From the NCBI RefSeq assembly GCF_045037415.1, contig NZ_CP173438.1: a DNA stretch of 64,000 nt. One strand, 5' to 3'. Position numbers: made by a program. This DNA is from Escherichia coli. Its GTDB lineage: Bacteria; Pseudomonadota; Gammaproteobacteria; Enterobacterales; Enterobacteriaceae. How positions within the stretch are numbered: the first letter of the stretch is position 1; each line of letters opens with the position of its first letter. Shown here piece after piece: positions 7,130 to 10,100 of this stretch.

Positions 7130-10100
7130 CATTGCCTTAATCTCCGCAAAGATAACCTCGTCATTCCGGACATTCTCTGCCAGGCATATGTCGATGTAAT
7201 CCATAAACGATTTCAGCTTAACCCTTTTGTGGCCGGTCTTTCTGGCTGGCGGTTCAGGGGATGTTTTCTGGTTATCGTGTACCACAAAACTGGGATATTG
7301 CCCCGATAGTCACATTTCAGATTGATCGCGGTCTGAAGATGTGGCACTGAGGTAACGTGCTGGTGTCACTGGTATTGCTGAAGTTATGGTTTTTCGGGGT
7401 CAGGTGAGCCTGTTGTGTGTATGCTTTTTGTTCAGATCAGAGGGGGGCTGTGCGGACAGCGGCTTTTGTCTCCGGGCATTCACGCCTGAACGATGAATGC
7501 GATTTTCAGCAATATTTGTCTTTGTGACACTCTCTGGTTGAGAAGCTAATGCGCGCCCCTGTTTCCACAGAGAATGAGGCTTGCCATCAGCCGAAACATC
7601 AGTATTCCACGCCATACAGACGGCGCCTGACCATGTGCTGATGCAGGTAAAATGTTTCAACTACAACTGTTCGGGTTGCTATGCAACGAAACAGCGATTC
7701 TCACGATCTTTAACTGCAACGTTTTTCCGCCTGAAAGCTGACTGCCTCCTGCTGAGGTGGGAGGCTATGATTCAGTGCGTTTATAGTCTCCGGGGTATGC
7801 ATGTACCGGAGCATACCATTTCTGGTGGATAACAAGCCGGCACATTCAGCCTGCAGTGAAGATGGAGGCACCTGGTTGTGAAGAACGTTTCTGCCCGTGG
7901 CTGCTTCGCATCATCAATGGTATTCATACCCGCTCAGAAATGACCGGGTGCTGAAGCCCTCCGTTATCGCGCAGTATAATGACGTATATGATCTGTGGAC
8001 GAGTGAGCGGCGTGCCTGATGTACGCCGCTATTACTGTATTTTACCACAGGGCTGGTTTTCTGCTGCCAGCCCTGTGGTTATCAGACATCAACTGTGAGC
8101 GGCATCAACCGATGTACGGTATGCCATAAGCACGTACTGATCCATCAGATTTGTCAGTGGTTCACTCTGACCCTGACGTGCAATGATCCATTGCTCCAGA
8201 TCTTTTTCTGATTTGTGTTTCAGGTTTTTCGTCCAGTCGTCAAGGCTGTTTCCGGTCATTAAGTCAAGCCAGCAGAGCCAGACCAGTTTGAGACGTAACT
8301 CCGTGCCGCCAAACTGACGGAAGAGGCTGATCAGTTTGTTTGCCAGAGAATGTTGCTTCAGGCGCTCACATTCAGACAGCAGGATCCCTTCCAGCATCGG
8401 ATGATGAACCAGCAGGTGTTCGCTGGTGCATAAATTCACCACCAGATCATCATCCAGGGACGGGGAGCTCCGTTTGTCCGGACCATAAATCAGCCGGTGC
8501 AGACTCTGGGGAACGATGGCAATCTCCGGTTTTTCGCCATTGAATGACACCCACCCGGGCGTCAGATTATGGAAATAGTAGATATTCGGATGACACACGC
8601 CCCATGATACGGCGTGCCGGGTGAAGCCGGTCAGCCATTTCTGGTAGTTTTCATGGAGCAGCTCGTAACGGGTCTGATACTGTTGTTTCATTTTCATATT
8701 CCTCACGGGGGATAACAGGCAGCAGAGCGCCGCCGGCAGGCCGGAGATTGCGTCTGCTTTGGGCGAAGGGTTAGTGGTTAAAAATTACGGACGGGACTGT
8801 GCAATACGCGCCTGCAGCCAGGCTTCCACTTCACTTTTCAGCCAGCGGGAGCTGCGCCCCATTTTGATGGGGGCAGGAAAGCCCCCAACTTTGATGAGTT
8901 TGTAAAACCACTTATCGGTTAAGCCGGTCAGTTGAGTGATAAACGCCATGTCGACCATCTGGTCATCCATCAGCGAAACTGGGGTAGCCATGAGAATGTT
9001 CCTCCGGATGTTGTTAAACCAGCCGGTGTGGTCATGAAAACAGCGCGCCACCTTCACCGGCATAACAACCGGGGAGAAACGTAAAAAATAATCGGGAATC
9101 TGGCTGTCCGGAGATAAACGGGGGGATTGCGATGGCAGAGCCGTAGCGGAATCCCGGGGGGTGCCCCTATTAAGTTGTCAAGCATGTTATGACGCCTGCG
9201 GGGTATAAAAAGTCCCGTCGCGCATCATGGCGAACAGAACGTCGCAGCGTCGTCTCGCCAGGGCGATAAGCGCCTGATTGTGTCGTTTTCCCTGACTCAT
9301 TTTGCAGGTGTAGTAAGCCCTGGAGAGCGGATCCCTGAGCGCGGCGAAGGCCGACAGGAACAACGCCCGTTTGAGAGCTTTATTACCCCGTCGCGAGGGA
9401 TGCTCACCGCGTATTGACGAGCCGGATCGCCGAGTTACCGGCGCAAGGCCAGCATAAGCAGCGAGATGTGCGACAGAGGCGAAGGCGCGGCAGGCGACCT
9501 CGGTGAGGAGTCTGGCTGCGGTCCTGACACCGACTCCGGGCATACTGGTCAGGACCGGGTAAAGAGGGTGAGCAAGAACTCGCTGTTCTACCGCAAGCGC
9601 CACCTCGTCTCTTTGCTTACGCAGCGTGATGAGCTGGAGTGCCAGACGTGGCAGTACTACGGCAGCGGCATTCGTGCCGGGAACGACGACGGTTTGTTCG
9701 GCCAGTGCCTGAGCTATGTCTGCTGCAAGGCGTTTACCCAGACGAGGCGCAAGTTTGCAGAGCTGGGCTGCCAGCTTCTTCTCACCCAGCGAAGCGAGTT
9801 TTTCTGGTGAGGGATATCGCTGGAGAAGATCGAGTACCGCCGGGTGATCAAGTCTCGGACCGAGAACGCGCTCCAGTGCCGGATGTATCTGGGTCAGAAG
9901 GCCGCGGATACGGTTGCTGGCCTGCGTTGTCTGTGCGGCAAGATCATCATCGAAGCCGCAGAGCATGGAGAGTTCGGCGATTTGCTCGTCAGCCAGTTTC
10001 AGCGTGCGTAGCGCGTGAGGCAGGGTACGGGCAGCTTCGGCAATGATGGCAGCGTCACGAGCATCAGTTTTAGCTTCACCGGCGTGTAAGTCGGCTATGC

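Follow-up and report, generated by a model that had tools for sequence, protein, structure and literature searches.

What occupies the position after alpA in the genomic islands of Escherichia coli, variable cargo or a fixed part of the island itself? The question is raised by a 64,000-nt stretch of E. coli DNA (contig NZ_CP173438.1 of assembly GCF_045037415.1; the whole stretch is called the window here), in which an alpA-type gene encoding a 68-aa winged helix-turn-helix protein (8785–8991, minus strand; RefSeq WP_000235219.1) is followed on the same strand by p200, a gene for a 200-aa protein of the uncharacterised "Aec62" family (8089–8691, minus strand; RefSeq WP_000813432.1). An earlier interpretation of this DNA (the sequence-only reading) rightly described alpA, an unknown protein behind it and an IS110-family element upstream, and took them to suggest an immobilised island remnant, in elements of a kind where the genes right behind alpA are often variable and accessory. 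Comparison with related islands suggests another answer: p200 is very probably a core backbone partner of alpA and not cargo, and the feature in the window is one more copy of a backbone module long visible in published island maps.

About 60% of complete E. coli genomes contain islands with this backbone, many of them more than one, and such islands are found across Enterobacterales. They carry adhesins, iron-uptake functions, toxins and anti-phage systems (BREX, restriction-modification), and most of their backbone genes are annotated merely as hypothetical. The interest of the locus lies in p200, which is very common, restricted to islands, and tied both to AlpA and to a terminator-like leader. 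An invariant partner of alpA that has no relative in sequence or structure and is preceded by a conserved leader of this kind makes a defined target for experiments on island mobility.

p200 as the partner of alpA

On profile evidence, the alpA product is a member of the AlpA/Vis/TorI family. It matches the Pfam families Phage_AlpA (PF05930, E 1.1e-06) and HTH_17 (E 4.1e-05) as well as PHROG 66, "excisionase and transcriptional regulator" (E 4.6e-09), and phmmer searches of PDB sequences retrieve 8c3t, of the AlpA family (E 0.0036), and 1z4h, the TorI excisionase (E 0.0085). At 19.5 bits it does not reach the NCBIfam "excise" cut-off of 28.8 bits, and PADLOC gives only weak helix-turn-helix matches (E about 1e-3). 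Pairwise ratios of nonsynonymous to synonymous substitution (dN/dS) of 0.05–0.25 indicate purifying selection. Members of the family act as an excision factor or activator (CP4-57; PMC3105296) or as an antiterminator (Pseudomonas aeruginosa; PMC7969949; PMC9371919).

The open reading frame (ORF) of p200 starts 93 nt downstream of alpA and ends at 8089. It is best read as 200 aa (8089–8691) rather than as the 202 aa from ATG 8697 given previously, because a Shine-Dalgarno sequence, GAGGA (8699–8703), lies 7 nt before ATG 8691 and merely 1 nt before ATG 8697, and because the start at 8691 is used by RefSeq (WP_000813432.1) and by the N-termini of all homologs. Purifying selection (pairwise dN/dS 0.10–0.28) and homologs in about 25 genera show that p200 is a real gene.

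The association of the two genes was followed in two surveys. For E. coli, a 1,071-bp query spanning alpA and p200 was compared with 5,426 complete genomes and was covered over at least 80% of its length in 3,333 of 3,548 matching records, corresponding to 3,331 of the 5,426 genomes, with a median of 2 and a maximum of 8 copies per genome. Outside E. coli, one genome per species was scanned, and the 42 loci obtained, spread over about 25 Enterobacterales genera, were annotated with hidden Markov models (HMMs) built from genes seen earlier; two of these loci begin too close to p200 for the upstream gene to be judged. alpA lies immediately upstream on the same strand in 37 of the 40 informative loci (36 by HMM and L052 by tblastn), the exceptions being two loci with a single zinc-ribbon gene in between and one, L051, that has a truncated p200 and no alpA. 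The pairing extends to divergent copies: at H64, the E. coli hit in which DNA similarity is confined to alpA, a p200 relative (36% identity) nonetheless comes next, and distant members with 23–30% identity are found in the same module. p200 alleles range from 36 to 100% identity within E. coli. It is the allele that varies after alpA, not the gene family, and the variable accessory slot postulated earlier is always held by one protein family. The sequence-only reading had named as its undoing a protein of known structural or regulatory prophage family with no variability at this position; gene-family variability was indeed absent, but the protein could be assigned to no known family. In some islands, tandem p200 paralogs (31–42% identical to the window protein) follow a single alpA, or a second copy stands further along (L005, 9190–9717 and 10001–10597; L010, 7273–7848 and 8001–8525; L023; L034/L035).

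The distribution of p200 is narrow. It was found in 1 of 50,697 phage records and in 9 of 72,556 plasmid records, at least 5 of which are 0.8–5 Mb in size and look like mislabelled chromosomes. No relative outside Enterobacterales was found in protein, structure and species-level genome searches, and none in CP4-57 or CP4-6, the two K-12 elements compared. The family is confined to chromosomal islands of Enterobacterales and is essentially absent from phages and true plasmids.

The gene order of intact relatives places the pair within a recurrent backbone. In the island of E. coli MIN11, tRNA-Phe and int are separated by some 40 kb of cargo (fimbriae, pgt, cdiBA) from YagK/YfjJ and zinc-ribbon genes; these are followed in turn by hha, alpA, p200, a 305-aa gene, a GTPase gene and Ag43, so that alpA stands about 42 kb from the integrase. 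In other genera, CbtA, CbeA, RadC, antirestriction and DUF932 genes lead, with further genes between, to the GTPase and an approximately 300-aa gene on one strand, and the divergent strand carries (Gp2/YagK), alpA, p200, (zinc ribbons, Gp2/YagK) and cargo, with the integrase, where visible, 6–9 kb beyond p200. In these intact islands alpA and the integrase are never adjacent, the distance between them being 6–42 kb. A Gp2/YagK-type gene lies beside alpA-p200 in nearly all related loci, and zinc-ribbon genes are found repeatedly, in many genera, next to p200 or Gp2/YagK genes. The backbone is of the CP4-44/SRL-PAI (pathogenicity island)/AGI-3 type and comprises alpA, p200, a Gp2/YagK-like Rep, zinc ribbons, a YeeP/YfjP GTPase, DUF932, ArdB/KlcA antirestriction genes, RadC and CbtA/CbeA. 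In E. coli islands (L002–L004, L015, L060) the alpA-p200 block is inverted relative to L005, L007 and L018–L059 and is co-directional with the GTPase operon, and an hha/ymoA-family gene lies between the block and the Gp2-like gene.

The p200 protein itself was uncharacterised, as stated earlier. It has no match in NCBIfam, PHROGs or PADLOC (0 families); Pfam searches with the single protein and with all 42 aligned members gave only two chance-level hits (E > 0.01), and PDB sequence searches with the single protein and the profile gave no match, the best hit being to ICT1 over 26 residues (E 0.16). Its relatives form 187 clusters at E ≤ 0.001, of which the 120 listed are at E ≤ 2.4e-63. A profile search run exhaustively over 1.84 billion representative proteins returned 125 hits, mostly fragments, with about ten full-length clusters at the 50% identity level. 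A second profile search returned 421 clusters at 90% identity; every one that carries an organism name comes from Enterobacterales. UniProt Q5K5T0 ("Aec62") is 88% identical and has the same predicted fold (template-modelling score 0.96). Literature searches met the gene solely in island tables, where it is an ORF without a name or is called "Aec62".

AlphaFold modelling from 42 diverse sequences gave a predicted local distance difference test (pLDDT) score of 85.7 and a predicted template-modelling score (pTM) of 0.85; a model built from 26 close homologs was poor (pLDDT 61). The predicted fold is mostly helical, with one long helix at the N-terminus, a single beta hairpin and eight more helices arranged as a bundle, and Foldseek comparison with AFDB50 returned only the family of p200 itself, so that p200 is confidently predicted to have a fold without known relative. 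The most conserved motif is G-x-L-L-S-E-C-x-R-L (residues 102–111), followed by L-C-W (139–141). C108, the only near-invariant cysteine, was rejected as an essential residue and is unlikely to be catalytic, since leucine replaces it in an apparently intact E. coli paralog.

Some p200 relatives in AFDB and UniProt are named "Malate transporter" or "Secretoglobin family protein"; these names look like annotation errors, because none of the profile libraries searched assigned p200 to any family. A link of the proteins so named to the neighbouring family of about 300 aa that accompanies the GTPase, itself very divergent, was also considered, but in a profile-profile comparison p200 showed no relation to that family (probability 0.13). 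Beyond the gene, starting 11 nt past the p200 stop codon, a 12-bp perfect inverted repeat is present in the window (8045–8078, minus strand; CCACAGGGCTGG, 10 nt, CCAGCCCTGTGG) that is not followed by a U-tract; it was not found by pattern search in four other E. coli islands and seems specific to the window allele.

The leader of p200

The spacer between alpA and p200 measures 94–107 nt in 31 of 38 loci (93 nt in the window), and the spacers share a two-tier hairpin made up of an inner 5-bp stem (UCCGN/NCGGA) with a 4–5-nt loop and an outer stem of 6–12 bp. A nearly invariant CTGCCTG(T/A) box lies 3′ of the hairpin and is followed by the Shine-Dalgarno sequence. In the window, the hairpin occupies 8719–8757 (minus strand), located by a covariance model (R1) and by spacer folding, with its inner stem (CCGG/CCGG) at 8733–8744 enclosed by the outer stem (GCAGAC../..TCTGC); the box, CTGCCTGT, falls within 8712–8722 (minus strand) in the spacer alignments and precedes the GAGGA of p200.

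RNAalifold on a plain MAFFT alignment recovers merely 3 hairpin pairs, with the outer stem shifting register; because this shift defeats a fixed alignment, per-sequence folding and the covariance model were used instead. R1 matches the window at 8710–8767 (48.7 bits, E 9e-10) and gives 45 hits in 1.18 Mb, one per related locus, each immediately 5′ of p200 on its strand and none elsewhere; the loci with the hairpin are the window, L002–L007, L015 and L018–L059. Even at L047, whose alpA and p200 have a zinc-ribbon gene between them, the weak hit (E 0.095) is still 5′ of p200. The inner helix is 93–96% paired, and its closing pair changes among lineages (GC in 21 sequences, CG in 14, AU in 2, UA in 1 and UG in 1). 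All 16 spacers tested form a nested hairpin when folded singly, their z-scores ranging between −0.7 and −3.7. The inner hairpin of the commonest lineage, behind which stands GGUUUUCU, scores as terminator-like, as does the Klebsiella copy, and the leader stem-loop looks like an intrinsic terminator in most lineages. No Rfam family was found in window positions 1–32000, and the hairpin is absent from Rfam.

Possible roles of the cassette

The reading we favour, which we hold at about an even chance, is that alpA, the leader hairpin and p200 together form an AlpA-controlled core cassette in the enterobacterial island backbone. AlpA would control p200 expression across the leader hairpin, and p200 would then be a core factor of the island's own programme, acting with the Rep-like and zinc-ribbon proteins, and not payload; that programme would be the control of excision, the replication of the excised circle, or transfer. 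A role of p200 specifically in the island life cycle is proposed tentatively, the balance being somewhat against it.

Two systems offer models for the control step. Overexpression of CP4-57 alpA leads to excision of CP4-57 (PMC3105296), and CP4-57 AlpA, P4 Vis and KplE1 TorI belong to the same small winged helix-turn-helix family as the window AlpA by Pfam and solved-structure sequence matches. The CP4-57 gene differs in context, however, lying beside intA and followed by yfjI (DUF3987) and yfjJ, whereas alpA of the window type lies away from the integrase and is followed by p200; the window alpA has no BLAST-level similarity to K-12 alpA. In P. aeruginosa, AlpA is a Q-like processive antiterminator that allows RNA polymerase to bypass an intrinsic terminator downstream of the promoter (PMC7969949; PMC9371919). 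Common family membership and the terminator-like hairpin between alpA and p200 make this a working analogy only; the P. aeruginosa target is a lysis operon and not a p200-like gene, and neither an AlpA-binding element nor a promoter was identified here. That AlpA acts by antitermination at the hairpin is, on balance, rather unlikely. The most far-reaching version, in which AlpA would read RNA polymerase through the leader terminator and p200, jointly with the zinc-ribbon proteins and the Gp2/YagK Rep-like protein, would trigger or license excision, rolling-circle replication or transfer, possibly in trans on sister islands including integrase-less ones, is unlikely; if true, it would describe the switch of a very widespread class of islands with virulence and anti-phage cargo.

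Several observations weigh against an AlpA-controlled core cassette. Consensus promoter scans found no sigma-70-like promoter 5′ of alpA and no convincing promoter for alpA or p200, with none between ISEc20, the IS110-family element upstream, and alpA. R1 hits are absent from the most distant subfamilies (L008–L012, the Providencia and Morganella loci), and strong support for the hairpin is limited to the inner 5-bp stem, the outer helix being 58–60% paired in a fixed register with a 5′ arm that shifts between lineages. The window copy is the weakest of those folded (z = −0.66) and is not more stable than shuffled sequence. The p200 protein is near neutral (median pI 6.6), like neither a typical DNA binder nor a DNA mimic, and no DNA-binding or enzymatic motif was detectable in it. 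Read-through from the cassette into the GTPase operon cannot be a general model, because the E. coli block is inverted relative to that of other genera. Finally, p200 often borders defence cargo (BREX, restriction-modification and LlaJI-type systems), so that a role related to payload is possible.

This last point leads to the alternative that p200 is a conserved payload, anti-phage, anti-defence or excluding superinfection by competing islands, that is merely regulated by AlpA. The neighbours of p200 include BREX in Klebsiella, type I restriction-modification with HNH in Salmonella, and LlaJI/AAA_5; the divergence of the family even within E. coli, together with its tandem paralogs, is a pattern often seen in conflict genes, and the predicted fold is new. 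Payload status sits poorly, however, with a place and partner that stay constant whatever the cargo, and with the absence of the family from phages apart from the single record; no PADLOC model matches, and dN/dS values of 0.10–0.28 give no whole-gene sign of diversifying selection. We regard a payload function as unlikely.

The leader might instead act as DNA, the hairpin and the CTGCCTGT box forming either a site bound by AlpA or an origin or nick site of the Gp2/YagK Rep-like protein, with p200 as an accessory protein. The nick made by HUH-type initiators is usually located in a hairpin or next to one. The Gp2/YagK-type gene adjoins alpA-p200 in nearly every locus, its family is related by Pfam to the G2P replication initiators of filamentous phages, and the conservation of the box 3′ of the hairpin exceeds what an untranslated spacer would lead one to expect. 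The fixed position and strand of the element relative to the p200 start, also at L047, fit a leader or terminator at least as well, however; the E. coli Gp2 gene is 2–3 kb away on the other strand, and nicking by YagK/YfjJ proteins is a putative activity. A function as a DNA site is accordingly rated quite improbable.

For the copy in the window, loss of function has also to be weighed, since the cassette there is an orphan, with no integrase in the island, ISEc20 inserted 171 bp upstream of alpA and the backbone 3′ of p200 broken by IS100. These features, and the lack of a promoter-like site between ISEc20 and alpA, would suit a dead remnant without present function that was carried along after integrase loss and breakup by insertion sequences (ISs). 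Both reading frames are intact, however; the 5.6-kb region around them is covered over at least 80% of its length in 823 complete genomes, the 25 best matches being 100% identical, and a role in trans is possible, because most genomes hold more than one copy of such an island. That the window cassette is dead therefore appears improbable to a high degree.

A toxin-antitoxin-like addiction pair, with a small helix-turn-helix antitoxin gene ahead of a larger toxin gene stabilising the island, would account for a unit of two genes in which the small DNA-binding gene comes first, in islands that already hold CbtA/CbeA modules, and for the retention of alpA where p200 is disrupted or truncated (L032, L042, L049), but is very improbable given the structured spacer of about 97 nt where the genes of typical type II pairs overlap and are coupled in translation, the tandem p200 copies behind a single alpA, the absence of any toxin-family match in Pfam, NCBIfam and PADLOC, and the replacement of C108 by leucine in an apparently intact paralog.

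The island in the window

ISEc20 (IS110 family; 9163–10615, minus strand) was delimited from RefSeq annotation, comparison with IS-free islands and junction sequences, and its transposase ORF (9187–10383, minus strand) matches NCBIfam NF033542 (E 2.4e-69). It is a clean insertion of 1,453 bp in the intergenic region between alpA and hha: the IS-free E. coli islands L002–L004 are collinear with the window on both sides, position 9162 joining 10616 with a difference of about 3 nt. The element is a simple insertion and does not stand in the place of an integrase, as had been supposed. On the divergent side of the control region, the features of a matching RefSeq genome, transferred to the window, include a small hypothetical ORF (10615–10848, plus strand) and a 5′-truncated hha/ymoA-family gene (11180–11323, plus strand), with an intact hha at the equivalent place in L004 and L015. 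They are followed by the inovirus Gp2/YagK-YfjJ family gene, a putative rolling-circle Rep-like gene (11963–12532, plus strand; RefSeq WP_000221519.1), whose product is 36–40% identical to K-12 YfjJ and YagK. All four genes of the module (Gp2/YagK-like, hha-like, alpA and p200) lie at 8089–12532, the hha-like one truncated, and the module is also present in L002–L004, L015 and L060. Next come two zinc-ribbon paralogs in tandem (12698–13099 and 13087–13497, plus strand, by RefSeq annotation), which overlap, are 32% identical to each other and have relatives that match Pfam DUF7828/Zn_ribbon_11.

On the other side of p200, homology to other islands ends at 7782. The backbone is broken here by IS100/IS21 (5349–7063), comprising istA (5349–6371) and a truncated istB (6368–7063), and by unrelated sequence, the whole break spanning 5349–7781 according to ORFs, RefSeq and island comparison. 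Other E. coli islands continue 3′ of p200 with the approximately 300-aa gene, a YeeP/YfjP-type GTPase and Ag43; GTPase and Ag43 are absent next to p200 in the window, where IS100 and other genes are found instead. Further along, a frame at 2679–3851 (minus strand) has 390 aa in its longest form and 381 aa in RefSeq (WP_001296206.1, hypothetical); the C-terminal tail of its product resembles the tails of the very divergent, approximately 300-aa proteins that precede the GTPase in related islands (weak BLAST matches, E 4e-05 to 7e-03), and by position the ORF may correspond to the gene for these proteins, moved away by IS100.

Many complete E. coli chromosomes of the O25b:H4/ST131 (sequence type 131) type match positions 7000–12600 of the window with 100% identity. 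In one of these matching genomes (NZ_AP018784.2), the region lies within a large island that adjoins cobU-cobS-cobT at one end and holds DUF932, antirestriction, yeeS and yeeT genes on the other side, left of the range of the window. An IS4 fragment and a cob gene fragment mark the junction beside cobU, where there is no tRNA gene; the three tRNA-Asn genes (34572, 36981 and 38805) are situated on the far side of cobUST and ldtA and do not form the junction of the alpA-p200 island. The chromosomal site is the place of CP4-44 in K-12. Neither the island portion of the window nor the complete genome that matches it has an annotated integrase, in agreement with the sequence-only reading, and core genes of P4-like satellites or phage-inducible chromosomal islands (psu/delta/sid/alpha primase, or pri-rep with a packaging module) are likewise not annotated in the island. 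The canonical tRNA-integrase-alpA arrangement of the P4/CP4-57 type is absent in both respects, alpA being without an adjacent integrase and the island without a tRNA or tmRNA junction. "Immobilised remnant" is a fair description of the window island, because it has no integrase, contains IS debris, joins cobU and not a tRNA gene, and occupies the CP4-44 site; that part of the earlier interpretation stands, while the IS standing in for the integrase does not.

Among described elements, the SRL PAI and the pheV, pheU and selC islands of E. coli, for example AGI-3 of avian pathogenic E. coli (APEC) BEN2908, have the same gene order as the window module. The SRL island of Shigella flexneri contains orf39 (YfjJ-like), orf40 (Hha-like), orf41 (Vis/AlpA-like), orf42 ("no similarity") and, further on, orf46 (GTPase) and orf47 (Ag43); its own excision factor gene, rox, lies beside int at the far end, which makes orf41 a second, internal Vis/AlpA-like gene (PMC6980539). 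orf42 is the equivalent of p200 by position only, and the AGI-3 ORF "Aec62" is the sole source of a name for the p200 family. SRL-type islands keep their tRNA-side integrase, and SRL also rox, whereas the window island has neither and lacks the GTPase/Ag43 segment by p200. CP4-44 of K-12, which has no integrase and shows no detectable excision (PMC3105296), resembles the window island in its cobUST site, in its backbone remnants (yeeS, yeeT and antirestriction genes) and in the missing integrase, but the ST131-type island is much larger and has the alpA-p200-Gp2 module and other cargo. A more distant parallel is offered by the tmRNA-associated defence islands I23, I44 and I55 of Pseudomonas, non-autonomous elements moved by a jumbo phage that have a tyrosine integrase at one end and variable defence cargo (bioRxiv 10.1101/2024.08.29.610337). 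They share a conserved block of RadC, inovirus Gp2-like and AlpA genes far from the integrase, but differ in host group and integration site, p200 relatives being found only in Enterobacterales.

IS debris is dense in the island (window 1191–2215, 5349–7063, 13781–15400 and around 30.6 kb) and derives from IS66, IS100/IS21, ISEc20, ISL3 and IS4: IS66 is represented by accessory genes, istB of IS100 is truncated, the ISL3 transposase has an internal stop, and the IS4 fragment is the one at the junction between the island and cobU. The yersiniabactin genes fyuA, ybtE, ybtT, ybtU, irp1 and irp2 of the high-pathogenicity island, at about 51–64 kb of the window, belong to a separate element.

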